DNA of 64,000 bases, taken from the IMG/VR virus record IMGVR_UViG_3300032308_001420, positions 11,685-75,684 of that record. The stretch is one strand, 5' to 3'. The stretch is from a virus. Taxonomy: Duplodnaviria > Caudoviricetes. Below the pieces are notes generated by a model that ran no database searches, was not told where the DNA came from, and saw nothing but the letters and a program-made list of their open reading frames with translations. Positions 2,971 through 63,890 of the stretch are shown here, piece by piece (the stretch's first letter is position 1; each line of letters begins with the position of its first letter). The position numbers and the translations under genes were made by a program.

Positions 2971-3966
2971 TTACTTCCAAGATCTGTATTCTATATCTGA
3001 TACTGCATTTTTAATACAGGCTTTAATTTCTTCATCAGTCATATCGCCTGCATCCTTTGCATCATGTGGATATATCTTACCATATTCATAAGAAGCCCAC
3101 AAGACATCTTTCATCCTTAGTTTATTGGCTATGCTAAGTCCTAATTCTCTGCCAGCCAAATCTGCATCTGTCATAATTGTTATTCTATTAAAATATCTAT
3201 TAAGTATATGATGTTGCTCTTTAGACAAAAACCCTCCAAGTGTTGCAACAACATTTGGAAAACCAGCTTGATGAATTCTAATTGCATCAAAGCTTGACTC
3301 AACAATTATTACATGGTCGCCAATCTTCTTTGCCCTATGAACATTAAACATTGTTTTGCTCTTAGGTAAGTTTGTGCTATTTTTAAAAGACTTACCCTCA
3401 ATTGATCTACCAACAATTCCAATTGGCATTCCATCTGGACTATGCACTGGAACAGTAACCATATCCATATTTGAGGAATACCCCAAACCAAAATAGTCCA
3501 TAGCCTCACTATTAATATTACGTGATATAAAATAATTGCATGCTCTAGTACTATTAGACCTGTCGTTAGATAGTTTATCTAATGTATCATTATTAAATTC
3601 CTCAAACATTGGCTTATCTTCCATTGCTTCCGCCAACATCTCATCAAAGTTTTCTAATGATTCCGTTTCTTTTGCAGAAATAAATCGCATGGCTTCAAAG
3701 TCATTCTTGTGCATGACTCGTTTAATTAATTCTAATAATGTTCCAGCTTCGCCACATGAAGGATTAAAGCATATGAATGCTCCCTTTTCACGGCTTACGC
3801 TAAAGCTTGATGTATGTCTATTTGAATGAAATGGGCAATAGCATAGGAAATCATTTGAAGTTTCTCCAACAATGTCTAAGCCAATACTTTTTAGTATTGA
3901 CTTTATGTGCGCTGGGGAATATTGCGTGGTATCAATTTCCCTTGAGAAATTCCCTCTAACCGCCAT
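2971..3966 (-). CDS. dnaG: DNA primase (CHC2 zinc finger + TOPRIM)
   Basis: CPFH..C..C zinc finger; IVESSFDA and TDADLAG TOPRIM acidic motifs; KDAGD. Confidence 0.93.
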   Translation of the reverse strand: MAVRGNFSREIDTTQYSPAHIKSILKSIGLDIVGETSNDFLCYCPFHSNRHTSSFSVSREKGAFICFNPSCGEAGTLLELIKRVMHKNDFEAMRFISAKETESLENFDEMLAEAMEDKPMFEEFNNDTLDKLSNDRSNSTRACNYFISRNINSEAMDYFGLGYSSNMDMVTVPVHSPDGMPIGIVGRSIEGKSFKNSTNLPKSKTMFNVHRAKKIGDHVIIVESSFDAIRIHQAGFPNVVATLGGFLSKEQHHILNRYFNRITIMTDADLAGRELGLSIANKLRMKDVLWASYEYGKIYPHDAKDAGDMTDEEIKACIKNAVSDIEYRSWK

Positions 3967-14013: not shown

Positions 14014-16250
14014 TATTCCCAGCTCACAATCCCAGTAGTCCAAACATTTGTATCTATTGAACTAACTGTTGGCTTATGTGATGCTGGCGTGGTGCCAAGG
14101 GCACCTCTTTTTTTAACACGATACTTTCCAGTAGGCTGAAAATATTTAGCTTCAGATCTTGCTAAATATCTATACTGATTTAAATCTGTTGAAGATTCAA
14201 TCCATACATTTTCTTCATCTACGCCAACAACACCATCTTTTGGTAAGTATCTATATTCAATTGCATCGAACTCTATTATCTCAGAGTTAATTAAAAAATA
14301 TCCATCAAAATTAAATACTGATTGAAGCTCACTATATTTATCTATTGTTGATAAATCTAAAACTAAGTTAGTATCTTCTGCTGGAGTGGTTGCTAAAATT
14401 TCATTCTTTAGTCCGCCTGCTGTTAAGTATGTTTCTGAAGACTGCCACAACGCAGCGCTTTGTCCTACATAACTTGAATTTGTTGGAGTGCTCCATAAAA
14501 CTCTGACCTGGTTTGCGGAGGGAATTTCTTTTTGAGACATAGAAATGATATTTGGAAGATTTGATCCTGAAGCGGAATCACGAAAATTCCATGATGAAGA
14601 TCTAGCTGTATCATATATATATTCTCTACTGTAAAACTGTAAAGTCCCATCGTCATCTATAAATGCATTCATTTGAATATCTCTACACAGCTCTTGTATA
14701 TATTCCCAAACTGTCTTGTTGCCGTCGGTCCACCAATAACTAATTACTGGAATAGACTTATCGTCTTCTTTTAAATTAAATTGATAATTAGTAAATCCAA
14801 CTGAATCAAGGAGTCTTCTTATAACCGCTGTTACTGGATAAAAATCACATAAAATATCTGGAGCAATTGTTTCCATTAATTGCTTAGCTCCATCTAAGGC
14901 AACTAAATTTAAATTTCCATATGAATCAATTGACCAGCTATCTATAAAATATACACCCTGATATTCTTTATCGTATTTATTTGGTGAAGTGCCCAAAGAT
15001 CCGTCTGTATGATAAATTATAAAGTAAGGCTTTATCTCTGCATTTTTAGTTAAATAAATTAAATCTGTAGGAGATGCAGGCCAACTTTCATCTCTATTGT
15101 ATGGAACTATTTGTAATGCATCTTGATTATACTTTACTGCAGAAATTTGAATACTGTTTGCTGTAACTTTTCCAATTGGCAAAATGTCTTGGGATGAGTC
15201 TGAAGATTCTTTTGTTACTGTCATATTAACTATATCTGATGATATGTCTTTTACCCATCTAGCTGATATCTCAATTACTCCAATATATTTTCCCCCGCCT
15301 GCATTTGTTGCTTCAAGTCTAATTGATTTTATTGCTTGTGGGGTAGAAAAAGAATATGGCTCTGAAATAGATGTAGCGTTCCAGTTGGTTCCATTCCAAT
15401 ATCTTTCTATTCTTCCACTAGATGGAGGTGCTGTATAGGTTGTAGTTATTGCAGCTCCAGATACTGGTGTAACAGTTATTCTGTACTGTGTTGGAAGAGA
15501 ATGATTTTTCTCAAACTGTACTACAATCTTGTTTGCATATGCAGGCTTTGTTGGCGTTGCAGTTCCAGAAGAATTAACAATTGTTGCCGTTGCTGATGCT
15601 CCAGTAACTGCTGTTCCAGTTGCTACATCTGATATTGTAAATGTTTTTTCCGTTGGTGTAGATTCAATAATTTTGTTTGATAGATTAAATGCACTTGTTG
15701 ATAATCCTGTTATTGTTACTCTATTGCCAGAAATAAAACCATGATTAGAACTTGTTTTATATACAACCTTCTTATTTCCATCTTGAGTTGTGCCAGCGGA
15801 ATATGCTTCAATTATTGTTGATGTACTCTGTACATACTTTACGGTAATATCTGCGTTATCATCTTTTGGTGTCACCCAATACTTATATGATGTAGATAGA
15901 CCTGGATAATAAACTCTTGGCTGTGTGTTTGGATATTCTACTGTTCTGAATCCAGAAAAGCTATTTAGCGGGGTATCAACAGAAGAAATAATATAATATT
16001 TAATTCCAGAAGAAAGAGGCCTAAATGGTTTAATTACTGAGTCTACTGGAAACAACTTTTTAAAAGGATTTATTTGAATTGGAGATGCTGTTCCAACTCC
16101 ATCTATATACTCTGAATCTGTAGATGCAGTTACAGCTGTAATATTGTTTAACATTGTATTCATATTATATTCAATTGTTGCGCCTACATTAATTGATATA
16201 GATGAATTTTGATAATAAACTGTTTGTAAATTTTCTGCAACTGTAGGCAC
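14013..16250 (-). CDS. Minor tail protein (baseplate hub/Tal-like)
   Basis: GVYFIDSWS..LVALDGAK..TVWEYIQELCRDIQMNAFIDDDGTLQF, typical of tail-tip hub proteins; second gene after the TMP. Confidence 0.72.
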   Translation of the reverse strand: MPTVAENLQTVYYQNSSISINVGATIEYNMNTMLNNITAVTASTDSEYIDGVGTASPIQINPFKKLFPVDSVIKPFRPLSSGIKYYIISSVDTPLNSFSGFRTVEYPNTQPRVYYPGLSTSYKYWVTPKDDNADITVKYVQSTSTIIEAYSAGTTQDGNKKVVYKTSSNHGFISGNRVTITGLSTSAFNLSNKIIESTPTEKTFTISDVATGTAVTGASATATIVNSSGTATPTKPAYANKIVVQFEKNHSLPTQYRITVTPVSGAAITTTYTAPPSSGRIERYWNGTNWNATSISEPYSFSTPQAIKSIRLEATNAGGGKYIGVIEISARWVKDISSDIVNMTVTKESSDSSQDILPIGKVTANSIQISAVKYNQDALQIVPYNRDESWPASPTDLIYLTKNAEIKPYFIIYHTDGSLGTSPNKYDKEYQGVYFIDSWSIDSYGNLNLVALDGAKQLMETIAPDILCDFYPVTAVIRRLLDSVGFTNYQFNLKEDDKSIPVISYWWTDGNKTVWEYIQELCRDIQMNAFIDDDGTLQFYSREYIYDTARSSSWNFRDSASGSNLPNIISMSQKEIPSANQVRVLWSTPTNSSYVGQSAALWQSSETYLTAGGLKNEILATTPAEDTNLVLDLSTIDKYSELQSVFNFDGYFLINSEIIEFDAIEYRYLPKDGVVGVDEENVWIESSTDLNQYRYLARSEAKYFQPTGKYRVKKRGALGTTPASHKPTVSSIDTNVWTTGIVSWE

Positions 16251-16722: not shown

Positions 16723-19700
16723 TAGTTTCTTCTTCCCACTCCAGTCATTGCTGCTCTCATTACATTCTTTTGATCAAGCATGTCTACAACCATTGTTGCA
16801 ATCATTTTTTCATCTTGTCCTGGTTGTGCATTCACAACAAATCCACCAACATCATAGTGGTGAACTGCTCCACCTTTATTATATCCTGGAATTTGATTTT
16901 TGCCAAGGGATACTGTATTTGTAGGAATATTGTATCTTGGTCCTACTGCTCCACCCATTGCATAAGCTGGAACACTCATATTAGAATAACTAGATGGATT
17001 TACATACCCACCTCTTGCAAAACCAAGACCCAGCTCTTCCAATATAGTTCCCTTTGGCTTATTAAGTGCAATCCACTTTGCCGTGTCTATTGAAATATCG
17101 CCAGTTTGACCAGCATTAATTCTTGGCATAATTGATCCAGTCATGCCAGATTTATTCATAAGAGGTCCTAGATTTTCTCCAGCTCCCATAAATCCTTCTT
17201 TGCTAAGCAAGCTCCATAAACCATAATTTTGTCTCTTTAAATCTTTTGAAAAATCCAAATACTTACCGAAAGGTATTTTTGTTATCTTATTAACAGAGCC
17301 ATATGACTCTCCCCATTGCCCAGGAACATTATATCCGCCAGCATATAAATCAGCTTCTGCCTTTGAGCTTGTTCCATAGAATCCCATTCCATAATAAGGA
17401 TCACGAGCATAATCTCCAGATAAATCTGTGACTCCACTAAATGGTCCATCAGAGTTTTGTCCTAGGTCGGCAGACCCATGGAACATTCCCTTCTTAACCA
17501 TTTTCTTAGCTTTAAAATAATTCATATATTGATTAAATAAATTAATTGGCTTATATGCCAGATCTTTGCTCTTTGATAAAATTCCAGCAAGCTTACCTAT
17601 TAGGCCCCCGCCTGCATATTTACGAACTGGTCCGCCCATCGCATAATCTGATGTGTCTCCATAGTTAGTTTTTTTATACCAATCTGCGTCTGCAGAAATT
17701 TTAGGAATATCTTCATCCCATCCTACTATTTTTTTAGAAGACAATCTACTCTCAATTGCTGTTTTAACATTTTCTATATATTGCTTATACAGCTTTATTG
17801 GCATTGAATCTGCTGAGTAACCAGATGCGCTTAACATTTCTATTAAATCGCTATCTTTTATACCAGACAATGTTGACTGTGCTCTCTGAAGACCCTCTAA
17901 ATATGCATCTCTTTCAGATTCTGGTAAGTATGAAAGCCCTTGATAGTATCTATTTTTTAGCCTATCAATAGATTTTTGTTGATCTCCAAATATATCTAAT
18001 GAATGCTTGGAGTCTCCAATTCTGCCAAAATCAATAGCGCCAGCTTTTTTACCTATTGGATTTATAATTAAATTTCCGCCATGTGCATCTGAGTATCCAA
18101 GTGCATCTAATATTGCATTTCTATAAGATCTTTCAGAAGTCATTCCAAGAGCAGCAAATGTTCTTGTGGGCAATGCGCTGACATTTTCTAGTGGCTTAAA
18201 TGCACTCCAAAACATTGGATCTTTTGATAGCTTTTCAACTATAATCTTTTCTGTAATAGAACCCTTAGATATCTCATCTACTGATTTGCTAAATATTCCA
18301 AGGTTGTGTGGGAAGGAATAAGGTGTTTTGTAGGGCTTTATTACTGGAGCAACCAGGCCAGCCTTGCCTGCAAAAATAGAGCCAAATATTTCTCGTCTTA
18401 CTTCATCTGGAGTTATTTCGTTTAAAGACTTAAGATATCCAGTATCGCCAGACTTTATATGCTCTACAAGCTGTGTAATATTTAATGATGCTGGAACATT
18501 GGATTCTAGTGTTTTAAATTCTGTATAGTCAAGTAATTCTGGAAACTTTATTACATCATTTATATCTTTTGTTGTTTTACCCATTTTAATTTTAATGGGA
18601 GATGAAGCAGCTGCAGATGCTGCTTTGCTTATTCCACCTATTTTACTTCCTAAACCCGCTCCCATAAAATTGAGTGGCAGCATTGCTGCAGATAGTGAAT
18701 CGCCTTTTCTGCCTTGTCCAGCAATTTTTCTTAGTAGTGCTGCTGTTCCAAATGTTTCTGCACCTGGCATTCCGCTAAGGCTAGATACATATCTTTGGAA
18801 CCAATTTTGTTTTTTAGCTGGGCTAGAAGAACCAAATGATGACATTCCCATTGCATGTGGAGCAGAACTTACCATGCCACCATCTGCAAAACCAAATGGC
18901 CAAACATTTTTTACTAGTTTTAATGTTTTTGGTGCGTCACCAAACATCTGTCCATATACTTTTGCTGGTAAAGAGTAAATTTCAGGTAATGATTCTAATA
19001 AATCTTTGCCACTTAATAACTGTGGAAACTCCATGCTTCCCTGTGCCTTGCTATTTCTTACAGCACCTTCACCTAAGAAATTTGTAAGCTGGGATATTTT
19101 TTTATCAATTCCAAACATTGGCAATTCTTCGCCAAGTTTTGCTGATCCTATCATTGCGCTATATAAAGCGGCTATATGTGGATTAGTAGAAAAATAAGTT
19201 GAAAGATCTCTTTCTCCAGTTCTCCAAGCGCTACCTGCGGTGTTTCTTACACCCTTAAATAATTTAATAACGTCATCTGGAAGCAAGTCATAAAATTCTT
19301 TTGCATAGTATTCATTAAATTTTCCTACATCAGAAAAATCAATTTTTGGATATTTAGCCTTTAGTAATGCTTCTCTTTGCGCCTGGACAAGTTCCCAAGC
19401 ACCAGCACCTGCTTTGCTTAGACTTCCTTCCTGTATCCATCCTTTGAGCGCTTCCTTTGCTGAGCTTGGGCTAAAGGTAATTCCAGTTTCTGGAATTTTG
19501 ATTGAAGATGGATCTAACTTTGATAAATCTTGTACAGCCTTGGCATCAATGTCTGCCATACCGAAGGATTTCATTTCAGGGGTAAGTTTTGATATAGCTC
19601 CTGGTACCTTTGCTGCGCCCCGTCCAACTCCTCCAAGTGGCAGTAGTGCTGCAGATAAGTAGTCTAATTTATTTCCAGTTCCAGAAAATACATTTGCAAC

Positions 19701-22700
19701 TTCTTTTCCGCCTAAGAAATCATAACCAAGACTATGCTTACCAAATTTAAATGGGTCCATAGTTTTTAAAAATTTATGCATAAACTTTGATAATAATGAT
19801 TGTTTGCTAGCCAATCCGCCATTTGCAAGTCTGCTTGGTCCGTAGTCAGACAGAGGATTTATAACTCTTCCTCCGCCTGCAAACATCAGTGGACCTAGTC
19901 CGTAGGCACCGCTTCCAATGCCTCCCATAGAGGCTCCAGAGCCTGCCATACGCATAGGATCTCTATCTATACCCATTCCTGGGCTTGTAAATGGTTTACG
20001 TGGCTGCTCAGCCATCTGATGCATGTAGTCTGAATGCTGTGGAACATTTCCACTAAACTTAAGTCCTGGAATTTCTGTTCCGCCCCATATGTCCATACCT
20101 GGACTACGTGGCCCAATAAACCTAGAAAGTTCTCCCCAGTATTGTCCAAAAGGATTTCCTATAGGCTTTCCAGATCTTGAATAAGGAACACCTGGCTTCT
20201 TTTGTCTTGGTACAGTTAGAGGTCCCTTTATCCAATTTCCAGAATCATCAAAAGAACTTGTAACCTTTCCACCTTGTGCAAATTTCTTTATATTAACCTT
20301 TGTGCCTGCAAAAATTCTTGATCCGCCCATATATTTTGGATCATTTAATTGTGGATTCATTTCCATTAATTGCTTGACGCTAATGCCATACTTTGCAGCA
20401 ATTGCAGATAATGTATCTCCTCTGCCTACTGTGTATCTATCATTTTCATAATCTGACTTAGCATCATCTGCGCTGTAATATTCTGGTGTGCCATATCCAT
20501 ATTTAATAGTATCTACTGGCTTATATGAAGGTCTTCCGAATCCTACAATTGGAGCATTCTTCATATTGTATTGTCTTACTTTTGCAAGTACTCCGCCGCC
20601 GCTTCTTTGACTTCCAGAGCCAGATGTATTTCCTTCTATAGTTGAAACTGCATTCTTACTTAAAACTTTTCTTACTAGTCCTACGTGAGAAATTCTATTG
20701 ACGCCATCTCCTGGGAAATCCATAAAGGCTAGATCTCCACGAACTGGACTCATTGTTGTCCACTTCCCACTCTTCATAAATGATTGAGCTCCACCAGGAG
20801 TCCATATCATACTTGATAAATCTACTCCAGATTTCTTTGCCGCCCAATTTATAAATGCACCACACCATGCAATATATCTAGTTTGTAGATCATATGCCTT
20901 CTGTGCAAATCTTCCAAATATTGTGTCGTTGCCTCTTCCTTCTTTATAGCCCAACATAGACTCTGCTGTTTTAATCATTGAGTCTGCTGTGCCCATCTTA
21001 GTTACCTTGCCGCCATTAGCAAATCTGCCAGCGTTTAGGTTATCAAGGAAATCTGGGCCAAGGTCTCTACTTGCCTTCTCAACTGAAGAAGCTTTAATTA
21101 CATATTCACCATCTGAAAGATATGCTGGGATAGAATCAGATGTTGAAGTTCCTGGACCCATTACGTCTCCGCCTGGAGCGTAGTGTTTTACAGCCCCACC
21201 TTGTGCAAAAGTAAAGTTACTTCCTGGGTTGTCGTATCCTGGGTTATACCATCTTCCAACAAGTTTATTATTTTTTAAAACATCGCCATTCTTTTTATAT
21301 AAATATCCACCCTGATTTACATCTTTAATTGGCCCCAACATTTCTAAACTTTGTCCGCCTCCATATGTTGGATGCACAAATGATTGATTTGATCCAGCAG
21401 GTCCACCTACTGGAACTGGCATAACACGAGCTTGCTCTCTTGTGTACTTAACTCCAGTTGAACGATTTTGAAATCCTCCAGTAGCGGGATCAAAAGATAA
21501 TTTAGTTCCTGATGTTGGCGTAGGAGTTCCAGATAATATTTTCTTTAATAATCCCAAAACTTCTGTATCTGATGTTTTAAGTTCTCCCTTTTCGTTGTAA
21601 ATTGCTTTACCAAATGCTGACTTAGCTATTTCCTCTATGCCACTTGGATTTGGAACAAATCTGCTTCCTACATAGCTACCGCCGCCACCAGATAAAGATC
21701 TTGCTATGTCTTTATATCCAGCTTTTTCTAAATCAGATATAAGCAGATTAAGTCTATCTTTCTCTGTTGGACTTAATTCACCATCTGTTGCAGAAGTTGT
21801 TAGTGCAAGAAGCTCTGTGAGTAAGGAGCTAAGATTTTCAACTTTTGCGTTTGCTGCATCAGCTGTCTTTTTTGCTGAATCTACTTTATTCTGAAGTCCA
21901 TCAATTCTTGCATTAAGTGCATCAATTAATGATTGTTCTTTTGAAATATCCTCTTCTGCCTTTAAATCAATAGCTCTCTTTGCTAAAGCAACTTGTTGAG
22001 ACCCAACTAATTGTTGAATTGCAATTTGTGCTTGTGCTGCACCAGACATATCTCCAGCAGCTAATTTATCTTGATACTCAAGCTGCTTTGCCTTAATTCT
22101 AAGATTAATGTCTTCATCTGCATTTTCTTCATCTAAAGCTTTCTTTCTTGCGTCCGCTTCTTCTTTTATTTTTTGAATCTTTTTATTATGTAATTCAATT
22201 TCTTTACGAAGAGCCTTAGCTGAAAGTTCTGCGTTTTGAATAATTTGTTCTGCATTTGTTTTTGAAACCTTTGCCATATCCTTTACAATTTGTGAATATG
22301 GACCAGATTTTAATGCTTCTCTTTGTTTTTCAATTATTATAGAAAGAGCTTCAGCGGCTGCTGGCCCCATATTTACAAAATCTAAAGCTATTCCAGATGT
22401 AGAAAGTCTAACTTTTGCCATAATGCTTGCCAAAGTATCTGTTGTGTTTAGAAGCCTGTTCATCTCCGCATTTTGCTTTACTATAGCATTGACACCCTCA
22501 ATTCCAATTGCTACATTTCCACTAGATGTTGCCTTTATCTGCTTTAATATTTCCTGATAAGATTCTGAAGAAGTTATGAGTTTGCCATTTTTATCTTTTG
22601 TATTCTCAATTGAATCTGCTAAATTATTATAAGCATTTAATGCGGTATCCAAGGACTTGCTTAGCTGGTCTGTATTTCCATTTTTAATTACATTATTAAA

Positions 22701-25700
22701 TGTTTCCAGGGTAGACTTTGCAGCAGAAGCTTTATCTGTAATAGTTCCAAAACCTTTATCTCCTAATACTGACAAAGCCTGGGCTGATTTATTTGAAATT
22801 GAAATTAATGCATATATTAATTCATTTGCATTTTCTACAGACATCCCGCTTGATACAAACATGGCTTTTAGTTGAGTTGCTTTCTGTGCCAGCTCTTGCT
22901 CAGATGCTACATTTAGCATTTTAAGTTCTGTTGGTAACTGTTCCTTAGCTTGCTTTTTTAGTTCATCAAATTCTTTTACAGTTATATCTATTCCTTGACC
23001 AGGAGCTTTTGTTGTAGTATATTTAAATGCTGCCGCCGCTGCATTTCTTAATTCAATTTCCTTTTTGTTTTTTTCTATAGATGAAGTTAAAGTTTTATAG
23101 TTAAGATTTAGCTTTTTTACAGTTTCTTCTTCTAGGCCAAAGGCGGAGTCAATTATTCTTCGTCTCTCATTAATTTTGTCATTAATGGTTTTTATTGCAA
23201 CTCCTACACCAAGCAAGACAGCTATTAATTTGACTGGCCCAGGCATTTTTGTAAAAAGTTGAAATGCTTTTGTTAATAAAGTTGTTTGAGTTCTTGCTGT
23301 TCCTGCAGCCCTAGACATAAGGAACATGTCTGTTGCCATTTGACCAACCATGTATCCGCCCATTTGCCCAATACCGCCAAACATTCTGCCGCCAACTTGA
23401 CTTAATCCAAATCCAGCAGCCTGTCCTAGAAGCATTGACTTCATGTATCCAGATGCTCCAATTCTTGGCTGAACAATTCTTTGTTCGTTTTCTTCCGCAA
23501 AGTATTGAACCCCAGGAACTACCCCGCCCTTTGAGAATCCAGGAATAATTCCACCAGACATTTTTGGAACAAATATTTCTGGACCATTCTCTCCAACTAA
23601 ATACGGTCTACCACCAGTAACTGGTCCTCCGCCTGCACGAGCACCGTCAACAACTGTCTCTAATTGTATTTTGCCATTTCCTGCATCAACAATTCTAAAC
23701 TTACCGCCAAAGATTGCCTCTTGTTCTGACCTTGAATTATGTCCAGCTACCTTTTGTCCAAATGGTGCTGAGAATTTTGCATCTGGGAAAATCTCTGATG
23801 ATGGAACAACATTTCTATTTCTTACAATTGCTTCTAATAGAATAGCTTTTTGGTCTCCTGGAGCAGAATGGCCAGGAGCAAATAAACTTGCTATGTCCCT
23901 ATTTTGACTCCACGATGAGCGGCGCATTATAAATTCTCTTCCAATTAAAGGAGTATAGTCTCCAGTTAATTTTGCCTGAGATATTAAATCTAATATATCT
24001 GCTGGCAGCGGATTTGATTTATTATTCTTTAAAAATATTCCTCTGTATAGTCTTCCAGTATATTTTCTTGATAAAGTTTTTACTGCTTCTGTAGCGCCTG
24101 GAGTTTGCAAAATGCCATAGTTTCCAGCCATGTATTGACGCAATATATATTTGCCACGATCCTCTAAATTACCAATTGGGAACTGAGGAAGTACTGCTTG
24201 TCTTGCAAATCTATCGTCACGATATAAAATTTCACGAGTCCACTCAGGCTCATTTTGCATATTTTTTGGAACCATTGTTGTTCCAATTTGTAATGGCCCG
24301 TGAAGTGGATCTTGGTTTCCTAGTGTATATTGATATCCTGGTTGTCTAAACTGCTGTTGTGGTTTCCATTTTCCAGTTAATTTATCAAGCTTTGACTTAG
24401 ATAAAGACTTTACTATTCTTCCAACCATGTTGGTTCCAAAGTTTTGTATGATTCCGCCCATATTTTTTCTTTGTATTCTAGCTACTTTATTTTCTTTTAG
24501 GGCAACATAATCTCGTTCGTATAATGCGGTTGGATTGTATTGAGTTAAAACTCTTTCTATTTCTGGAATTACATCTTTTGTAAAAGTAAACTCTGCGCCA
24601 AGCTCTGGTCTATCTCCTATAGTTGGAAGTTGATCTACTGAGACACCACGTCTTTGTGCTTCGTTTTCAAATCTTGTTCTTATTGCTGAATCTATTGCTT
24701 CTTCAGCTTCATCCCATTGAGAAAGAGGAATTTTTGCAGCTCTTAATTGATTTCTATATTTGTTTACTCCTGCTACCTTAACAAGGTCTCTTCTTAAAAA
24801 GTCGGATGGTCTAAGGTTATTTTGGTTTGCTGATAAATTAGTTGCCGCTGTATAATCTACAATATAGTTGCTTACTAATACTTTTCCATCTCCTAGTTTT
24901 TTACTTACTGTAAGATGCGTACCATGTCTTGGCTCTGCATATGGAAGTGCATCTAGTCCATTTTCTACAAACCTTGAATTTAATTCGCTAACATTTTTTG
25001 ACTGTAATGTTCTTGATGTTTGAGAATGAAGTGCTGGATCTTTTTTAGACCTAGTTAATTTATCTGTAAAGTTTTTAGCTACATCTAAATATTTTTGTTT
25101 TAATACAGGATCTGGAATATCACCAATTTGAGAAATAAATCCTCTAGCATCTGCCCCTCTTGCTTTTATGCCATGAACAGTTTCTACTACATCTCTATTT
25201 CTAGTTGTAGAAAGACCTTTAACAATTCTATTAGGCATCATTCTGCCAAAGAATTGCATACCCTCTATCATTCCGCCTTTATTTTTATTTTGAATTGGAA
25301 CTATTACCGCTTTACCCTTATTGTATAGATGAAGTCCTTCTGGGTCACGAGCTGTTTGTTCTTTAGTTACAACAAATTCTCCTGGAGTAAGCATTGCTGG
25401 AACGGTATCTGTATTTCCTTGACCAGGTACAAATCTACCTTGTTCGGTAGTAAATACCTGTCCGCCCATGTTTAATCTTTTTGGTCTAGTTGTTTCTGTT
25501 GAATATGGTGCGCCAAATGTTTTAACTCTAAGCGCTTCAGCAATTCTTGTAATAAGGTTTCTGTTTCTTGGTCTTGTAAGTTCTTTCATATTTGATTTTC
25601 CAGTTACTGGGTCAAATGCTGGTTGATCTACAATTGGCAACTGTGTTAAATTAATTGTTCTTCCTTGTGCAGTAGCAACTCCTGTTGCTGCCTGCCCCAT

Positions 25701-28181
25701 CATTGCTTCAATCTGTTGGTTTAATGCAATAACTCTTGCTCTTGCTTGTTCAACAGTTATCTTAGATGCTTGAAGATCTGCAACTATTTGTGCTGATTCT
25801 GATGCGGCAAGTGATGTTAATCTTGACATTTCTGGAAGAAGCGCTTGATATGAATCTGATAATGATGTAGTTATTAGTCCAGTTGCTGCAACTTCTCTCT
25901 TTAATAATGCTATTTCTTCTTTTGATTGCATTGCTAATGCACCAGTCATTGCATGCCACTTAGCAGCTTCTTCTGCAACAATTCCTGTTGAAACTCCACG
26001 TACCGAGCTGACTCCCTCTATCTTTGGTAGATCGCCAGACATATACATTTGTGGGTTATTGCTTATTTTTTGATTAACTAATGGTGCTCCTGGAACAATG
26101 CCAAATATTGTTTGTGCAGCTTTTTGTTCTGGTGTCATCTGGCTTACTGGATTTGGATGAGAAAAAGATCTAGTATCTCTATCGCTTACAAGTGGGTGGC
26201 TTGGAACAACTTCTCTTGCACCAGCAATAATTGTTTGCCCAGCAATTGTTGATATTGTTGGTTGTGATGAAATTGTAGCTGATCCTGCTTTTGTTTGTAA
26301 TTGAGTTAATTGATCATTTACATAGCTAAGCGCTTCTCCAAGTGCCATGGCTGCTTTAGCATCATTATAAAATGTTTGCTCTACTAAGTTTCCAGCTTTT
26401 TGTGCTGCTAAAATTTCTGGTGTTAATAAACGCCATCCTTCGCCGCCTTTAAAAAATGCTCTAAGATGAGCGGCGCCCTTAACAACATATCCCAAGAAGT
26501 TTGCCAGCACACCAGTTAACATAATAATTGGGCCAGCTAATGCTGTAAATCCAGCAAATAGGCTCATTAAAGTTTTTACTGGTCCAGGTAGTTTATTCGC
26601 AAAATTTACAATCTTGTCAAGAACATTTATTAAAAATGTTCCAACATTTAAGAACTGCTCTCCTACTCCAGCCAAGTCTGCTTTTAGTTGCTCTAATGCT
26701 CTACGGAATCTACCAGAAGCAGATTCAGTAATTTGTGCTAATTCTCGTCCAGCTACACTTGCTAAGTCACCTGCGCTTGCATTCATTAAATCTAAAACTT
26801 GTAAAGTCTGGCTACCCTGTCTACCTAGGTTATCAAAAAGGGCTGACAGTCTAGCAAATTGGAACTTACCAAAAAGCTGTTCAATTGCTTTTGTTTTGCT
26901 AAGCGGATCAAGTCTGTCTAAAGCTTTTTGCAAATCTAAAATAGTGGCAGTTAAATTTCCAGCGTTACTTGTAACAATTTGACCTAAATCAATACCAAGT
27001 CCCAGGAACATTTCTTTTGCGACTTTAGTAGGATTGATAAGTGAAGCTAGGGATGATTTAATTGCATTTGCGCCTTCTGATGCATTAATTCCTCCTTCTT
27101 TCATTGCTGTCAAATATAAAGCAAGATCTTCTATGTCTCCACCCAAAGATTTAACTACTGGACCCGCCTTTGGAATAGCTTCTACTAAATCATTAAGAGT
27201 TGTTGAAGTTTGGTTTTCAACAGCGTTGAGGAAGTTAATAGACTCTGCTAACTCTTGAGTATTTTGATTAAAAGCTGTTTGAATTGCAAGAGTAGCCTTC
27301 ATTGCTTCTTGTCTATCTACTTCACCAAGAACTGAAAGTCTAGTAGTTTCTCTTACTGAGTTAAGAAGCTCTGCTCCTTGTTTTCCAGTTGCAGCTATAT
27401 CTGCAGATAGGGCTATAGTTTCTTTATAAGATGCGCCATATTGTCCTGCTAATTCTTTTGCTGTTGCAGCAACTTCTTTTCTTACTGTAGCTAACTCTGC
27501 TGCAGAGCTTCCTGCTATTCCGCCATAAACTTTTGTTAAACGAACTAACTGCTCGTCTGCTTCTCTAAATGCATCTGCTGCTGCTTTACCAAATGCTGCA
27601 ATTGGAACTGTTAAACCAACTGTTAGCTGTCTACCTGCCCACTGTGTATTTTTACCCCAGTTAATTAATTGAACTCCGCCATCTTGAATAACCTTATTAA
27701 AGATTTGCATTTCTTGCTTAAGCAGAGCTGCTTTGTTTTTAGTTTCGTCTAAACCTCTTGGTATATTAACATTGAATTGCATAAGCCCCTCGGCATTTCT
27801 ACCGAGAGGCTGAATGATTGCATTCTGTAAGGCTACCTGCTGTCTAGCAAGATCTCTAATTAATCCGCCAGAAGTTCTACTGTGCTGTTGCCAGACACCG
27901 TAATACTCTCTTAACTTTAATCTACCCTGATCTAAATTTTTTCCAAATTTATCAACATCAGCTGTTAAATTAACAAAGTGTGTAGAGAATTGTCCAGTAC
28001 TTCTTAAAGTACTTGCAAAGCCCTGCTGTATCTTTGTTGCATTTAAAGCTAACGCTTTATCTGTGTTAGTTAAAGTTTGCTTTAATTGAGATAACTGAAG
28101 ATTAACCTTATTAACATTTGAAATAAGATCTGAAAAGTCTGCACTAGCAACTATATTGGTGACTACATTTTCGCTAGCCAT
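16722..28181 (-). CDS. Tape measure protein, 3819 aa, polyvalent (TP901-type core plus ART-like x3, CHAP, LysM, kinase-like domains)
   Basis: Follows the chaperone pair; N-terminal TMP core (GLTVPIAAFG, GINASEGANAIKS), SDSIPAYLSDGEYV and YLVGENGPEIFVP TMP motifs, embedded enzymatic motifs. Confidence 0.95.
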   Translation of the reverse strand: MASENVVTNIVASADFSDLISNVNKVNLQLSQLKQTLTNTDKALALNATKIQQGFASTLRSTGQFSTHFVNLTADVDKFGKNLDQGRLKLREYYGVWQQHSRTSGGLIRDLARQQVALQNAIIQPLGRNAEGLMQFNVNIPRGLDETKNKAALLKQEMQIFNKVIQDGGVQLINWGKNTQWAGRQLTVGLTVPIAAFGKAAADAFREADEQLVRLTKVYGGIAGSSAAELATVRKEVAATAKELAGQYGASYKETIALSADIAATGKQGAELLNSVRETTRLSVLGEVDRQEAMKATLAIQTAFNQNTQELAESINFLNAVENQTSTTLNDLVEAIPKAGPVVKSLGGDIEDLALYLTAMKEGGINASEGANAIKSSLASLINPTKVAKEMFLGLGIDLGQIVTSNAGNLTATILDLQKALDRLDPLSKTKAIEQLFGKFQFARLSALFDNLGRQGSQTLQVLDLMNASAGDLASVAGRELAQITESASGRFRRALEQLKADLAGVGEQFLNVGTFLINVLDKIVNFANKLPGPVKTLMSLFAGFTALAGPIIMLTGVLANFLGYVVKGAAHLRAFFKGGEGWRLLTPEILAAQKAGNLVEQTFYNDAKAAMALGEALSYVNDQLTQLQTKAGSATISSQPTISTIAGQTIIAGAREVVPSHPLVSDRDTRSFSHPNPVSQMTPEQKAAQTIFGIVPGAPLVNQKISNNPQMYMSGDLPKIEGVSSVRGVSTGIVAEEAAKWHAMTGALAMQSKEEIALLKREVAATGLITTSLSDSYQALLPEMSRLTSLAASESAQIVADLQASKITVEQARARVIALNQQIEAMMGQAATGVATAQGRTINLTQLPIVDQPAFDPVTGKSNMKELTRPRNRNLITRIAEALRVKTFGAPYSTETTRPKRLNMGGQVFTTEQGRFVPGQGNTDTVPAMLTPGEFVVTKEQTARDPEGLHLYNKGKAVIVPIQNKNKGGMIEGMQFFGRMMPNRIVKGLSTTRNRDVVETVHGIKARGADARGFISQIGDIPDPVLKQKYLDVAKNFTDKLTRSKKDPALHSQTSRTLQSKNVSELNSRFVENGLDALPYAEPRHGTHLTVSKKLGDGKVLVSNYIVDYTAATNLSANQNNLRPSDFLRRDLVKVAGVNKYRNQLRAAKIPLSQWDEAEEAIDSAIRTRFENEAQRRGVSVDQLPTIGDRPELGAEFTFTKDVIPEIERVLTQYNPTALYERDYVALKENKVARIQRKNMGGIIQNFGTNMVGRIVKSLSKSKLDKLTGKWKPQQQFRQPGYQYTLGNQDPLHGPLQIGTTMVPKNMQNEPEWTREILYRDDRFARQAVLPQFPIGNLEDRGKYILRQYMAGNYGILQTPGATEAVKTLSRKYTGRLYRGIFLKNNKSNPLPADILDLISQAKLTGDYTPLIGREFIMRRSSWSQNRDIASLFAPGHSAPGDQKAILLEAIVRNRNVVPSSEIFPDAKFSAPFGQKVAGHNSRSEQEAIFGGKFRIVDAGNGKIQLETVVDGARAGGGPVTGGRPYLVGENGPEIFVPKMSGGIIPGFSKGGVVPGVQYFAEENEQRIVQPRIGASGYMKSMLLGQAAGFGLSQVGGRMFGGIGQMGGYMVGQMATDMFLMSRAAGTARTQTTLLTKAFQLFTKMPGPVKLIAVLLGVGVAIKTINDKINERRRIIDSAFGLEEETVKKLNLNYKTLTSSIEKNKKEIELRNAAAAAFKYTTTKAPGQGIDITVKEFDELKKQAKEQLPTELKMLNVASEQELAQKATQLKAMFVSSGMSVENANELIYALISISNKSAQALSVLGDKGFGTITDKASAAKSTLETFNNVIKNGNTDQLSKSLDTALNAYNNLADSIENTKDKNGKLITSSESYQEILKQIKATSSGNVAIGIEGVNAIVKQNAEMNRLLNTTDTLASIMAKVRLSTSGIALDFVNMGPAAAEALSIIIEKQREALKSGPYSQIVKDMAKVSKTNAEQIIQNAELSAKALRKEIELHNKKIQKIKEEADARKKALDEENADEDINLRIKAKQLEYQDKLAAGDMSGAAQAQIAIQQLVGSQQVALAKRAIDLKAEEDISKEQSLIDALNARIDGLQNKVDSAKKTADAANAKVENLSSLLTELLALTTSATDGELSPTEKDRLNLLISDLEKAGYKDIARSLSGGGGSYVGSRFVPNPSGIEEIAKSAFGKAIYNEKGELKTSDTEVLGLLKKILSGTPTPTSGTKLSFDPATGGFQNRSTGVKYTREQARVMPVPVGGPAGSNQSFVHPTYGGGQSLEMLGPIKDVNQGGYLYKKNGDVLKNNKLVGRWYNPGYDNPGSNFTFAQGGAVKHYAPGGDVMGPGTSTSDSIPAYLSDGEYVIKASSVEKASRDLGPDFLDNLNAGRFANGGKVTKMGTADSMIKTAESMLGYKEGRGNDTIFGRFAQKAYDLQTRYIAWCGAFINWAAKKSGVDLSSMIWTPGGAQSFMKSGKWTTMSPVRGDLAFMDFPGDGVNRISHVGLVRKVLSKNAVSTIEGNTSGSGSQRSGGGVLAKVRQYNMKNAPIVGFGRPSYKPVDTIKYGYGTPEYYSADDAKSDYENDRYTVGRGDTLSAIAAKYGISVKQLMEMNPQLNDPKYMGGSRIFAGTKVNIKKFAQGGKVTSSFDDSGNWIKGPLTVPRQKKPGVPYSRSGKPIGNPFGQYWGELSRFIGPRSPGMDIWGGTEIPGLKFSGNVPQHSDYMHQMAEQPRKPFTSPGMGIDRDPMRMAGSGASMGGIGSGAYGLGPLMFAGGGRVINPLSDYGPSRLANGGLASKQSLLSKFMHKFLKTMDPFKFGKHSLGYDFLGGKEVANVFSGTGNKLDYLSAALLPLGGVGRGAAKVPGAISKLTPEMKSFGMADIDAKAVQDLSKLDPSSIKIPETGITFSPSSAKEALKGWIQEGSLSKAGAGAWELVQAQREALLKAKYPKIDFSDVGKFNEYYAKEFYDLLPDDVIKLFKGVRNTAGSAWRTGERDLSTYFSTNPHIAALYSAMIGSAKLGEELPMFGIDKKISQLTNFLGEGAVRNSKAQGSMEFPQLLSGKDLLESLPEIYSLPAKVYGQMFGDAPKTLKLVKNVWPFGFADGGMVSSAPHAMGMSSFGSSSPAKKQNWFQRYVSSLSGMPGAETFGTAALLRKIAGQGRKGDSLSAAMLPLNFMGAGLGSKIGGISKAASAAASSPIKIKMGKTTKDINDVIKFPELLDYTEFKTLESNVPASLNITQLVEHIKSGDTGYLKSLNEITPDEVRREIFGSIFAGKAGLVAPVIKPYKTPYSFPHNLGIFSKSVDEISKGSITEKIIVEKLSKDPMFWSAFKPLENVSALPTRTFAALGMTSERSYRNAILDALGYSDAHGGNLIINPIGKKAGAIDFGRIGDSKHSLDIFGDQQKSIDRLKNRYYQGLSYLPESERDAYLEGLQRAQSTLSGIKDSDLIEMLSASGYSADSMPIKLYKQYIENVKTAIESRLSSKKIVGWDEDIPKISADADWYKKTNYGDTSDYAMGGPVRKYAGGGLIGKLAGILSKSKDLAYKPINLFNQYMNYFKAKKMVKKGMFHGSADLGQNSDGPFSGVTDLSGDYARDPYYGMGFYGTSSKAEADLYAGGYNVPGQWGESYGSVNKITKIPFGKYLDFSKDLKRQNYGLWSLLSKEGFMGAGENLGPLMNKSGMTGSIMPRINAGQTGDISIDTAKWIALNKPKGTILEELGLGFARGGYVNPSSYSNMSVPAYAMGGAVGPRYNIPTNTVSLGKNQIPGYNKGGAVHHYDVGGFVVNAQPGQDEKMIATMVVDMLDQKNVMRAAMTGVGRRN
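20290..20980 (-). other. CHAP amidase + LysM domains inside the TMP
   Basis: AWCGAFINW (catalytic Cys), SHVGLV (His), TIEGNT; LysM YTVGRGDTLSAIAAKYGISVKQLMEMNP. Confidence 0.9.
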
Positions 28182-28191: not shown

Positions 28192-28563
28192 TTACCCCTT
28201 TTCATATCCTAATCCCGCTCCGATTCCAAATCCTGCCTGGGCTGCAAGTGGTCCTTGTAGTGAAACAACATCGTTTGCACCTGCATTTATTCCCAAGGCT
28301 CTTCTTTGTATATCTTCAAAGGTTGGACCTTCTTGTTCTTCTTCATCTTGACCTAAATCAATTCCTTGAATAGATGCTAAGAATCTTCTTTTCTCTGATT
28401 CAGTTTTTTGCATTGACTTTAAAGTCTGAATGAGTTCTGGCATTGATAAGTTATCTTCTAGCTCGTCGTAATTCTTCCAATGACCTAAAAGAAAAACTTC
28501 TCCCAATAAAGCGGCAAGATCTAGTTCTGACCAGCCAGAACCGCTGCCGCTAGAAGGTTTGGG
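28192..28563 (-). CDS. Tail assembly chaperone, -1 frameshift extension (gpGT-like)
   Basis: The -1 frame is open from the slippery site (PKPSSGSGSGWSELDLAALLGEVFLLGHW..) and is in frame with ORF 28192..28506. Confidence 0.85.
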   Translation of the reverse strand, partial: PKPSSGSGSGWSELDLAALLGEVFLLGHWKNYDELEDNLSMPELIQTLKSMQKTESEKRRFLASIQGIDLGQDEEEQEGPTFEDIQRRALGINAGANDVVSLQGPLAAQAGFGIGAGLGYEKG

Positions 28564-28853
28564 TCATCCATCTTAATTCCTCCGCATACTTCAAGAATGC
28601 GGTTGATTGTTGGAACATCCAATGCGTCTTCTAGTGCATCTCTATCTTTTACTAGATCTGGCAATTGCTTTTCTAATGCTACTGCACATGCATCAATGAG
28701 AATTGTAAGCGTCTCATCCTCTGATGTAACTTCTGCTGTCTTCTGAATTGCTGCCATGAACTTTCTAAGTTCTTTAATTGTCAAAGGCTTTAACTTTACC
28801 TTAGCCCCGTTTTGTAGTTCAATTTCTTCTACGTCGTAGATTGTAGTTGCCAA
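28521..28853 (-). CDS. Tail assembly chaperone (gpG-like)
   Basis: VKLKPLTIKELRKF; between major tail and TMP; TTG start with GGAGG RBS. Confidence 0.88.
   Translation of the reverse strand: MATTIYDVEEIELQNGAKVKLKPLTIKELRKFMAAIQKTAEVTSEDETLTILIDACAVALEKQLPDLVKDRDALEDALDVPTINRILEVCGGIKMDDPNLLAAAVLAGQN
28557..28563 (-). promoter_or_regulatory. Programmed -1 frameshift slippery heptamer C CCA AAC
   Basis: X XXY YYZ in the correct phase; a TGA in the -1 frame lies immediately 5' of it. Confidence 0.85.
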
Positions 28854-41690: not shown

Positions 41691-41697
41691 TTTAAAA

Positions 41698-42270
41698 TTA
41701 TACCACAATTCCCATAAAATCTAAGTTTCTTTTAACGGATGAAGAATACATATTAGGCATGGGTATCTTATAAAGCTTAATAAATAATTCTTGGCTTTCA
41801 TCTTGTCGTCCTACCCACCAGGCAGCTACGGCTTTTTGAAATGTTAAGCAAAAATCTCCTGGGTAATCAACACCTATTGGAAGAGGTGCATGATTTTCTG
41901 ATAATCTATAAAGACCAACTTCTGCATAAGTATATGCTTGCTGCCAATTTTTATTTCTTTCGCTATAACGAGAAAGCAAGAACCATGCTTCAGGTCTTCC
42001 TGGTTGATATGCAGCAGCCTTTAAAAAAAGATTTTCTACTGTAGCCTGTCTATTTTTTTGATTTTCAAAACAATTTGCTGACTTTAATAATGATGCATAC
42101 ACATACTCTGGGTGTGAATAGTAACCATATTCTGCCGCCCTTAAATAAAATGAAATAGCGGCAGCAGTTTGTCCTACAAGTTCATACTCTGTAGCAATGC
42201 TAAAACAAAGTTTTGGGTCAAAAGGATCTTTGCTTAGTTTTTCAACTAATTCATTTATTACCTCAAACAT
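41698..42270 (-). CDS. TPR-repeat protein of the type found with glycosyltransferases
   Basis: [34 protein letters not shown]. Confidence 0.75.
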
Positions 42271-56507: not shown

Positions 56508-56508
56508 T

Positions 56509-63869: not shown

Positions 63870-63890
63870 AATATTTTCTGGTTGACTGAC

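Follow-up and report, generated by a model that had tools for sequence, protein, structure and literature searches.

A recurrent aromatic-Ala-x-Gly-Gly peptide as the probable module joint of a cassette-bearing giant tape measure protein

Introduction

Tape measure proteins (TMPs) of phages are classically described as "rulers". Besides this they are known to serve as a channel and, in some phages, to carry one embedded wall hydrolase. Here we describe the TMP encoded in a window of 64,000 nucleotides (the whole stretch of DNA that was analysed), which is part of the 75.7-kb IMG/VR virus entry IMGVR_UViG_3300032308_001420 (positions 11,685 to 75,684), a record of an uncultured phage estimated to be 70% complete. 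Between its modules this protein repeats a short peptide, [F/Y]-A-x-G-G or a looser variant of it. We read this peptide as the usual joint between modules and, by analogy with processed TMPs, probably also as a site of maturation cleavage or a hinge.

In phage T5 the TMP pb2 is cut after R1127 during tail morphogenesis, at a site that was mapped by mass spectrometry. The product pb2C keeps the muralytic domain and remains in the tail; once ejection has taken place, pb2* is anchored between hub subunits by its final 42-43 residues (Linares et al. 2023, PMC10038345). Phage lambda gpH is converted to gpH* and gpHC by removal of a C-terminal piece of ~14 kDa from a glycine-rich region that holds the sequence FATGG; the cut site and the catalyst have not yet been identified (PMC12617516). 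For gp46 of phage JBD30 a hook at residues 1022-1066 was predicted and likened to the T5 anchor, and a cut at residue 1066 was proposed from a peptide-cutter prediction (PMC11445458 and PMC13033339 cover JBD30 and Douge). In T5, 80alpha and JBD30 the hub accommodates C-terminal helices of the TMP. The tail protein Tal of TP901-1 is processed at the glycine-rich motif NGGGNSGGGD, just before its catalytic domain (PMC11409707). Polyvalent proteins of phages and conjugative elements combine many conflict or effector domains of unrelated kinds in a single chain, for which delivery along with the DNA and division into units have been proposed (Iyer et al. 2017, PMC5512222). Finally, in Sle1-type TMP-related effectors of actinobacterial contractile injection systems the functional domain varies between species and is exchangeable (PMC13277306).

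Results

Motif copies and consensus

All copies of the motif sit in one protein, the TMP P0001 (Table 1; positions in the protein are given in amino acids, aa). There are 18 in total, namely 10 strict [FY]AxGG copies and eight looser variants which were chosen by eye. The initial annotation of this DNA had claimed at least 15 copies of [F/Y]-A-x-G-G. All 17 copies it listed were located within about 10 nucleotides, and an 18th (YDVGG, aa 3776) was found just below its start coordinate; the pattern itself describes 10 of the 18 copies but not the remaining eight. The amino acid composition of the protein predicts 0.25 strict copies compared to the 10 observed, and the maximum in 2,000 shuffles was 4. 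For [FYL][AN]xGG, 13 copies were observed versus 0.87 expected (shuffle maximum 5). Two helical stretches, aa 1-900 and aa 1640-2160, contain no copy, as had been annotated.

A word-based search with aa 2300-3819 yielded 104 other TMPs of 2,100-5,300 aa. At least one strict copy is present in 101 of these 105 giant TMPs, with a range of 0-10, and the window TMP shares the maximum with two others. The motif logo over homologous TMPs which had been proposed was built from 170 non-redundant strict copies and revealed a wider consensus, [G/K/R]-[F/Y]-A-x-G-G-x-[V/I/A], within flanks rich in Gly, Pro, Ser and Lys. The -1 position is G, K or R in 67% of the copies. The position two past the Gly-Gly is V in 56%, I in 20% and A in 18%, hence one of these three residues in 94%. 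This enrichment falls at a position that was not used in selecting the copies and thus supports the motif as real.

Exchange breakpoints at the motif

At the protein level, the window TMP was compared with the 104 homologues, and the internal ends of BLASTP high-scoring segment pairs (HSPs) of at least 300 aa were related to 10-aa windows around the motif copies within aa 880-3800. These windows cover 11.5% of the region and contained 134 of the 268 ends. With strict copies only (aa 2300-3800) the corresponding values were 66 of 136 ends and 12.3% of the region. Among recurrent clusters of at least five ends, 12 of 22 lay within 10 aa of a copy. Individual joints attracted 21 ends (aa 970-988, KNKGG 966), 15 ends (aa 1235-1243, KNMGG 1239), 23 ends (aa 1508-1515, RAGGG 1515) and 96 ends (aa 2385-2431, FANGG 2387). 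The sequence N-x-G-G-x-I at KNMGG 1239 is invariant in alignment A2, and G73 and G74 at FANGG 2387 are invariant in alignment A3.

The same question was put to the whole family in an all-versus-all comparison of recurrent end clusters, with a distance of 10 aa and 500 shifted-position controls. Of 2,429 end clusters 242 were near a strict copy, whereas the controls gave a mean of 63 and a maximum of 85. With the looser pattern 507 of 2,494 clusters were counted versus 163 in the control. No enrichment was seen for [FY]Ax(not G)(not G), which served as control pattern (190 versus 262).

At the nucleotide level 25 viral loci were compared. Of the blastn HSP ends, 63 of 152 were no more than five codons away from a copy, positions that account for 6.6% of the gene; for distinct end clusters the count was 9 of 33 (p=2e-4). 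Five block edges were viewed base by base, and all five lose similarity inside the motif codons, usually at the Gly-Gly. The partner sequences at these edges carry motif variants of their own: MKLGG, FANGG, MATGG, FHAGG and FNVGG. For the DNA of the CHAP-LysM cassette (codons 2328/2335 to 2767-2771), identity to the window TMP gene reaches 83-87% in loci where the rest of this gene is 66-75% identical or unalignable. Accordingly high is the identity of the cassette protein (aa 2320-2773), with 86-87% in loci whose other TMP parts reach 27-54%. In locus L020 a block of 95% identity spans codons 3100-3725, that is FADGG to FARGG. FADGG 3098 forms the left edge of this block and also the right edge of 77-81% blocks in L016, L018 and L021-L024. 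A 75% block common to L004 and relatives stops at codons 904-907, within LNMGG 903, and nucleotide blocks in seven loci stop at codon 1548, beside FSKGG 1549. One homologue (P0009) is 98% identical to the window TMP up to LANGG at aa 2785 and unrelated thereafter until aa 3721, where a conserved C-terminal part begins: aa 3721-3819 are 89-90% identical in P0003, P0009, P0010, P0012 and P0013 despite differing upstream cassettes.

Judged from these alignments, the enrichment of alignment ends at the motif is real. Testing the proposed mapping of cargo-swap breakpoints to the motif therefore gave a positive answer in terms of enrichment, with most ends lying elsewhere.

The motif as part of a general TMP module

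The window TMP contains several paralogous units: aa 903-966 resemble aa 2334-2391 (module A), aa 960-994 resemble aa 1233-1264, aa 2764-2898 resemble aa 3095-3215 (a joint plus an adaptor of ~100 aa), and aa 2311-2338 resemble aa 3501-3526 (a tandem joint). The motif is the best-kept core of these units, the flanks of which have diverged to 26-46% identity.

Module A contains the sequence GPGTxTSDSIPAxLSxGEYVI, has a motif copy at either end and occurs twice in the window TMP. Its second copy was found in 103 of the 104 homologues and, together with its flanks (aa 2320-2395), matches 1,088 phage records; 39 of the 40 among the matches listed are annotated as TMP. The window TMP thereby possesses the gpH-type C-terminal module (GPGTxTSDSIPAxLSxGEFV) of TMPs from solved virions, and module A matches the PDB TMP chains 8zdo_S and 8rk3_A. 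The module A profile matched Douge gp16 twice (954-1013 and 1411-1462, E 3.5e-27) and JBD30 gp46 at 1016-1088 (E 1.7e-8). JBD30 gp46 has FASGG before and HATGG after the module, Douge gp16 carries YAGGG and YANGG, lambda gpH reads FATGG(733)-FTGTGGKYEPAGIVHRGEFVF...-YATGG(778), and phi1026b gp14 reads LATGG(1221)-...SDSIPAQLSNGEFVV...-FAAGG(1277). One or two copies had been described as usual in TMP C-termini, which is true of these four proteins. When three chains of aa 2318-2396 were modelled together from alignment A3, the predicted complex scored 0.02, which speaks neither for nor against self-association.

Module B belongs to a stretch (aa 1515-1553, ...GGRPYLVGENGPEIFVP...) with counterparts at the C-termini of several ordinary PHROG families of TMPs, namely phrog_1538 (profile positions 704-741 of 811), phrog_10574 and phrog_30701. 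It also gave a weak BLASTP match to T5 pb2 around R1127. As far as such alignments tell, the motif belongs to a general C-terminal module of TMPs and is not special to this phage. New here is its multiplication.

As an additional observation, MAFFT placed DEDIPKISADAD at aa 3486-3500 (17681-17725, minus strand) in the columns where relatives have the "SDSIPAxLSDGE" of module A. The segment may be a decayed remnant of module A just before the tandem joint 3513/3522, or a misalignment.

Cassettes between the joints

PHROG endolysin alignments cover aa 2396-2554 and start just past FANGGKV, and the LysM domain ends at aa 2631, three residues ahead of FAQGG 2634. The claim that the copies fall between domains is borne out by these two edges and by the homology-block boundaries located on motifs. 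Weak agreement came from an AlphaFold2 (AF2) model of aa 960-1560, in which four of four copies are inside segments with a predicted local distance difference test score (pLDDT) <50, a range that includes 319 of the 601 residues modelled. N-terminal to CHAP-LysM, hydrophobic Gly-rich stretches were read from the translation at aa ~1570-1660.

Cassette D2 was modelled by AF2 from the 23-row alignment A2 with moderate confidence (core aa ~1339-1510, pLDDT 63-85). About 30 best rows of the Foldseek search were all ADP-ribosyltransferases (ARTs), namely Vis, C3, Certhrax and VIP2, with E values of 1e-4 to 1e-2; the best match was Vis (4xzk, E 1.1e-4, TM-score to target about 0.4). R-S-E ARTs of the C3/VIP2/Vis type carry a catalytic Arg, S-x-S and E-x-E in this order. 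D2 contains Y-R-G (aa 1379-1381), R-R-S-S-W-S (aa 1420-1425) and E-Q-E (aa 1486-1488), invariant and in order in all 23 rows. No curated ART profile such as PF03496 was found for D2 in Pfam at E<=1; in the ESM Atlas PF03496 appeared only as a lead with a 20% share and a score of 0.88. Based on the model, D2 is an ART fold inside a TMP. Its nearest ESM Atlas clusters consist of stand-alone viral proteins of 205-250 aa.

For cassette D5 (aa 3527-3716) no Pfam match was obtained at E<=1. An ESM Atlas feature score of 0.87 linked it to clusters carrying PF18760, so that a second ART of the ART-PolyVal type is a possible lead only; the consensus shows HGS...YGMGFYGT. The AF2 model of aa 3090-3819 had a mean pLDDT of 33 and was unusable except for the YDVGG hairpin, with strands at aa 3774-3778 and 3781-3785, and the C-terminal helix directly after it (pLDDT 53-68). 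A stand-alone search with D3-D5 returned 32 short matches. Seven of them were inspected and resemble fragments of TMPs or gene calls of TMP C-termini; the search was uninformative on free-standing cargo or genes split at joints.

Among the 104 homologues D1 is present in 11, D2 in 29, CHAP-LysM in 42, a G/P-rich piece in 45, D3 in 23, D4 in 9 and D5 in 26. The seven cassettes assort independently, with 29 presence/absence combinations. The order of shared parts differs in six homologues, in some of them possibly as an alignment artefact. At least two unrelated effector or enzyme domains hence reside on one phage polypeptide: CHAP plus LysM and the predicted ART fold, with ART-PolyVal as a lead only.

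Table 1: Features of the tape measure protein gene and its surroundings (positions in the window).
Feature	Position	Strand	Basis
TMP gene P0001, 3,819 aa	16722..28181	-	ORF (open reading frame) list and translation
PhageMin_Tail domain (PF10145), aa 240-438	26868..27464	-	Pfam; N-terminal helical part, motif-free
Tail assembly chaperone candidate, upstream of TMP gene	28524..28853	-	phrog_10504, E 1e-33; phrog_344 "tail assembly chaperone", E 7.8e-4
Joint LNMGG, aa 903, loose	25461..25475	-	Motif map
Module A copy 1, aa 908-965, GNTDTVPAMLTPGEFVV element	25287..25460	-	Paralogy with aa 2343-2386; row 18 of alignment A3
Joint KNKGG, aa 966, loose	25272..25286	-	Motif map
Cassette D1, aa 971-1238	24468..25271	-	Mostly helical in low-confidence AF2 model
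Joint KNMGG, aa 1239, loose	24453..24467	-	Motif map
Cassette D2, aa 1244-1514, predicted ART fold with R / S-x-S / E-x-E	23640..24452	-	AF2, Foldseek and alignment A2
Joint RAGGG, aa 1515, variant nearest T5 site R|AEGG	23625..23639	-	Motif map; T5 comparison
Module B, aa 1520-1548, PVTGGRPYLVGENGPEIFVPKMSGGIIPG	23538..23624	-	Element near C-terminus of ordinary TMP families; invariant columns in A2
Joint FSKGG, aa 1549, loose	23523..23537	-	Motif map
Joint FAQGG, aa 2325, strict	21195..21209	-	Left edge of 86% nucleotide block common to L002
Joint YAPGG, aa 2334, strict, tandem with 2325	21168..21182	-	Motif map; paralogy; alignment A3
Module A copy 2, aa 2339-2386, GPGTSTSDSIPAYLSDGEYVI element	21024..21167	-	gpH-type module conserved in TMPs (lambda, JBD30, Douge)
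Joint FANGG, aa 2387, strict	21009..21023	-	Motif map
CHAP domain of CHAP-LysM cassette, aa 2437-2518	20628..20873	-	Pfam PF05257, E 7.7e-6; PHROG endolysin families
LysM domain, aa 2583-2631	20289..20435	-	Pfam PF01476, E 5e-12; PDB LysM chains
Joint FAQGG, aa 2634, strict, 3 aa past LysM	20268..20282	-	Motif map; Pfam; HSP ends
Joint FAGGG, aa 2767, strict	19869..19883	-	Right edge of 83-86% nucleotide block, 16 loci, codons 2767-2771
Joint LANGG, aa 2785, loose	19815..19829	-	Motif map
Cassette D3, aa 2790-3097, ~100-aa adaptor (LSAALLPL) and further domain	18891..19814	-	Adaptor paralogous with aa 3095-3215
Joint FADGG, aa 3098, strict	18876..18890	-	Motif map; block edges
Cassette D4, aa 3103-3512	17646..18875	-	Presence in 9/104 homologues
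Joint YAMGG, aa 3513, strict	17631..17645	-	Motif map; HSP ends; paralogy
Joint YAGGG, aa 3522, strict, tandem with 3513	17604..17618	-	Motif map; HSP ends; paralogy
Cassette D5, aa 3527-3720, possible ART-PolyVal-like domain	17022..17603	-	ESM Atlas lead
Joint FARGG, aa 3721, strict	17007..17021	-	Right edge of 95% L020 nucleotide block, codon 3725
Joint YAMGG, aa 3740, strict	16950..16964	-	Motif map; blastn ends
Joint YNKGG, aa 3767, loose	16869..16883	-	Motif map
Joint YDVGG, aa 3776, predicted hairpin HHYDV-GG-FVVNA	16842..16856	-	Motif map; AF2
C-terminal helix, aa 3791-3813, within conserved last ~100 aa	16743..16811	-	AF2

Identity of the TMP and its genome setting

On sequence grounds the window protein is a TMP of the TP901 / PF10145 type. 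Its PF10145 match has an E value of 1.1e-27 (97.6 bits versus a cut-off of 33.2). Nine PHROG TMP families match at E<=1e-21, with phrog_10030 as the best (E 2e-123), and span the first ~800-1,100 residues. The gene order is that expected for a TMP, with chaperone-like ORFs at 28195-28853 upstream, minor tail proteins (phrog_10359) at 12298-16250 downstream, and the genes for portal, head protease and capsid further upstream. The N-terminal 900 aa share 34-36% identity with TMPs of ~130-kb Streptomyces phages. A tblastn search of 50,697 phage records with the last 999 aa found no match, so that none of the isolates sequenced in that collection has the cargo of this lineage. A phmmer search of the PDB with the whole protein returned LysM chains only.

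Further genes on the minus strand of the window are of interest in their own right. The 745-aa minor tail protein directly downstream of the TMP gene (14016-16250) gave a sub-threshold match to RVP_2, a retroviral-type aspartyl protease (E 0.0023, 18.2 bits versus a cut-off of 20.3). It is the sole protease-like signal near the TMP and is probably due to chance. A 764-aa protein (8410-10701) ends in a Peptidase_S74 intramolecular chaperone domain, typical of self-cleaving tail fibres or spikes. Three paralogous genes (44156-46186, 46263-47978 and 48404-50374) encode proteins with fn3 and Gly_rich_2 domains (phrog_2295), and form one block with the genes for a Laminin_G_3 protein (37447-39324) and a collagen-like tail fibre protein (40569-41708). 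A 787-aa protein (54165-56525) possesses the N-terminal domain of the major tropism determinant (Mtd_N, E 3.7e-9) and adjoins a 953-aa protein with nine collagen-repeat stretches (56814-59672). Mtd is the target of a diversity-generating retroelement in Bordetella phage. A ribonucleotide reductase-like gene (60861-62792) and a group 1 glycosyltransferase gene (62886-63911) are located at the upstream end of the window.

Discussion

Joint, exchange and cleavage

That the motif stands at module boundaries and that cassettes are exchanged there is, on the alignments described above, very probable. That the joint peptide is in addition a maturation cleavage site is suggested by analogy; it is tentative, though the most likely of the functions considered for the peptide. 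For the statement as a whole, i.e., module joint, exchange and cleavage or hinge, we estimate a probability of roughly 0.4.

In detail, we take the motif as the part that is conserved in the usual joint by which modules are connected outside the helical regions of TMPs, embedded in flexible sequence rich in Gly, Pro and Ser. Ordinary TMPs have one or two joint copies beside the gpH-type module near their C-terminus, and this lineage has multiplied the joint, partly through duplication of joint-plus-adaptor units. Strung between the joints are exchangeable cassettes: CHAP-LysM, the predicted ART, the possible ART-PolyVal domain and three of no assigned family. Related phages gain, lose and swap them by recombination with crossovers inside the motif codons, because the joint is the only sequence common to unrelated cassettes and a junction there leaves every module intact. 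The peptide would be kept as a maturation-processing (or hinge) site, and the TMP pieces would stay in the tail lumen and exit ahead of the DNA. By analogy to T5, where pb2 is split into pb2* and pb2C at R1127|AEGG, the scissile bond would be located just before the Ala.

Residue 1128 of T5 pb2 opens AEGGMMYPGVSYQMGEHGTEVVTP (AEGGMM), which is one of only two A-x-G-G sequences in its 1,219 aa. Window aa 1515-1539 (R-AGGG-PV...YLVGENGPEIFVP) resemble the T5 sequence R|A-E-G-G-h-h followed by the element "GExGxE..xP", although BLASTP finds this similarity weakly and in two registers. In lambda a cut at FATGG 733 would leave about 12.7 kDa. The cleavage site and the protease of gpH are unmapped, hence the link between cut and motif is here a match of position and size only. 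Lambda gpH aa 700-782 (L029) hold FATGG and YATGG around GEFVF inside the region of the gpH to gpH* cut, which gives a directly testable site prediction. With these cases in mind we consider the protease-site reading of the joints, one of three offered by the initial annotation, plausible. A much wider generalization can be drawn by analogy. [Large residue]|A-x-G-G-x-[V/I/A] would then be a general maturation code of long-tailed phage TMPs, covering the T5 site and a lambda gpH site at or beside F733-A734. The giant TMPs would be true polyproteins that fill the tail lumen with as many as seven enzymes, each released on its own and entering the host before the DNA (in the window TMP a wall hydrolase plus one or two ARTs), and the payload would be re-equipped by cassette swaps at the joints. 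We regard this generalization as rather unlikely.

Several candidates for a cutting agent were considered. Double-glycine processing systems comprise C39 leader peptidases and JAB/MPN+ peptidases cutting after Gly-Gly. Tails assemble separately from heads, and the prohead protease is unlikely to be the agent for this reason. CHAP was rejected as processing enzyme, as ~60 of the 105 family members are without PF05257 and nearly all have the motif. Asn-Gly self-cleavage chemistry was rejected as well, x being N in only 26% of the copies. Within the TMP itself Pfam detected no peptidase family besides CHAP at E<=1 over the whole protein, where a divergent peptidase in D1, D3 or D4 is possible.

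A number of observations weigh against the favoured reading. No tail-associated protease, JAB, C39, zincin or gpK-like JAB/NlpC-P60 protein was found among 36 PHROG-scanned and 38 Pfam-scanned window proteins, in which the peptidase-type matches were the head maturation protease and the fibre Peptidase_S74 chaperone only; the record being about 70% complete, a tail protease may lie outside it. The residue before the Ala varies (F, Y, L, M, K or R) and is R in T5, which does not point to one protease specificity. Copies in tandem are 9 aa apart (2325/2334, 3513/3522 and 3767/3776), and four copies fall into the conserved last 100 aa beside the hub-binding helix. Cleavage at these copies would therefore yield useless mini-peptides, and they look more like a repeated structural hairpin. 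The similarity between T5 and the window is weak, resting on a single pairwise comparison (E 0.001 and 0.046) with FVPR|AEGG aligned to FVPK-MSGG in the second register, and the module A profile did not retrieve T5 pb2 from the PDB. Concerning exchange, de-duplicated end clusters were only modestly enriched at the motif when tested against the query (14 of 63, p=0.011; strict copies only, 9 of 36, p=0.027; cluster p values of 0.01-0.05), and strict copies with short HSPs gave p=0.2. Tests that include the loose copies are partly post hoc, since these copies were chosen by eye. Recurrent ends without motif occur near aa 1002, 1569-1575, 2855-2867, 3188-3222 and 3278-3280, two of which coincide with ends of adaptor segments. 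Family-wide, 80-90% of the alignment ends are away from motifs.

Alternative explanations

The close rival of cleavage is an uncleaved structural connector, which we consider possible but somewhat doubtful. Each copy would form a beta-hairpin with a Gly-Gly turn and tandem copies a small beta-meander. The connector would organise the TMP in the lumen or dock to the hub, the distal tail protein or the tube, like the "hook" of T5 pb2* after ejection, and the cassettes would stay on one chain and be threaded out in series. The hairpin predicted at YDVGG directly before the C-terminal helix fits this picture, although it is a low-confidence prediction for one copy only. The 9-aa spacing of tandem copies and the four terminal copies agree with a repeated structural unit, and the occurrence of the motif in phages of very different hosts suits a tail-intrinsic partner better than a host protease. 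The motif also flanks module A, which aligns with JBD30 gp46 across the predicted hook. This hook was likened to the one by which the T5 TMP is held in the baseplate hub once ejection is over, and the assembly/ejection-signal reading that was offered alongside the protease sites is accordingly possible. On the other hand, solved structures show no motif copy: lambda gpH is unresolved at ~690-817 (PMC12617516), and of the JBD30 (8rk3) and Douge (8zdo) proteins only the last 33-42 residues were built. A connector also gives no account of how wall-acting (CHAP-LysM) and presumably cytoplasm-acting (ART) modules reach different compartments from one chain, and would make the position of the T5 cut, immediately ahead of AEGG, a matter of chance.

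Two further explanations deny the peptide its role. If the motif DNA were a recombination signal (a GGYGG-type hotspot or a phage recombinase site) driving exchange, with the peptide incidental, the ends of similarity blocks inside motif codons would follow directly. Yet the 18 copies vary at synonymous sites (TTT/TAT/TAC, GCA/GCT/GCG, GGC/GGT and GGA/GGG/GGC), the GGY-GGA codon-pair preference is equal at 31 non-motif Gly-Gly dipeptides of the TMP gene, and the shared DNA amounts to only about 8-9 specified bases. The aromatic residue and the V/I/A at +6 are defined at the amino acid level, and the motif is conserved in ordinary TMPs without cassettes. We therefore judge such a signal highly improbable. 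The motif is kept as a peptide, as synonymous sites vary and the conserved features are amino acid features, and the crossovers are best explained by a short stretch of common sequence together with selection that preserves the modules, with no dedicated DNA signal. "Recombination joints for cargo exchange", the third suggestion of the initial annotation, consequently stands as a description of where protein and nucleotide blocks end, with no sign of a signal in the DNA itself. Apart from the motif, Gly-Gly dipeptides across the TMP gene prefer GGY-GGA and avoid GGA-GGA, which may reflect avoidance of the Shine-Dalgarno-like GGAGG. Improbable, too, is a motif without function of its own, as a relic of joint-plus-adaptor duplication or a by-product of glycine-rich linkers. 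Eight to ten of the 18 copies do lie in longer paralogous units, and the protein contains 10% Gly. But composition falls far short of the strict copies found, the motif is better kept than the flanks of these units, and the 8-residue pattern is maintained over 170 non-redundant copies and in the distant TMPs of lambda, JBD30 and Douge. The module joint with a possible second role in cleavage thus remains our favoured explanation.

Meaning and comparison with known systems

Head-packaged proteins such as T4 Alt are a known route for injected proteins. With a chain of exchangeable enzyme cassettes including ART-like domains, the tail lumen would become another path by which host-takeover or counter-defence proteins are injected. 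Should the joint prove to be a portable signal for processing or hinging, it would mark insertion points for foreign domains that leave tail assembly intact, which would be useful in the engineering of laboratory phages; and if the general cleavage code is true, these TMPs would constitute a natural plug-and-play protein-delivery platform. The joint is also a concrete, testable candidate for the cut site of lambda gpH.

Already known are TMPs in which a wall hydrolase is embedded, the maturation cleavage of the T5 and lambda TMPs, polyvalent proteins split by an embedded peptidase (PMC5512222) and a TMP-related effector with an exchangeable domain (PMC13277306). No description of the joint motif, its multiplication, cassette-bearing phage TMPs or cassette exchange at the motif was found in the open-access literature. 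Sle1, in contrast to the window TMP, is cargo of a contractile injection system and not a phage TMP, and its abstract does not mention a joint motif (PMC13277306). Polyvalent proteins share domain types with the window TMP, i.e., ART including ART-PolyVal and peptidoglycan hydrolases. Their processing was proposed to occur via an embedded zincin-like MPTase, whereas none was detected by Pfam in the window TMP; furthermore, the window scaffold is a tail length-determining protein with units set off by a specific short joint, and a search of that article showed no occurrence of the term "tape measure" (PMC5512222). Tal of TP901-1 and Tuc2009 resembles the window TMP in being a tail protein with a glycine-rich junction before a cell-wall-degrading domain. 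It differs in being a hub/fibre protein with another motif and a single site.

Among the TMPs proper, the predicted hook of JBD30 gp46 overlaps its module A match, and cargo cassettes are reported in neither the JBD30 nor the Douge paper (PMC11445458, PMC13033339). Lambda gpH has the same layout as window aa 2325-2391, its FATGG (733) and YATGG (778) flanking "AGIVHRGEFVF", but is without cargo domains. T5 pb2 is like the window TMP in having a hydrophobic segment followed by a peptidoglycan-hydrolase domain, with a hub-binding C-terminal helix in T5. The cut in pb2 separates the channel-forming part from the enzyme domain, both pieces being kept in the tail (PMC10038345), and "YQMGEHGTEVVTP" past the cut resembles "YLVGENGPEIFVP" of window module B. 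T5 has an Arg where the motif has an aromatic residue, and one site and one enzyme domain where the window TMP has 18 copies and about 7 cassettes. The window TMP is a TMP C-terminal module of the T5/lambda type that has been multiplied into a cassette array.

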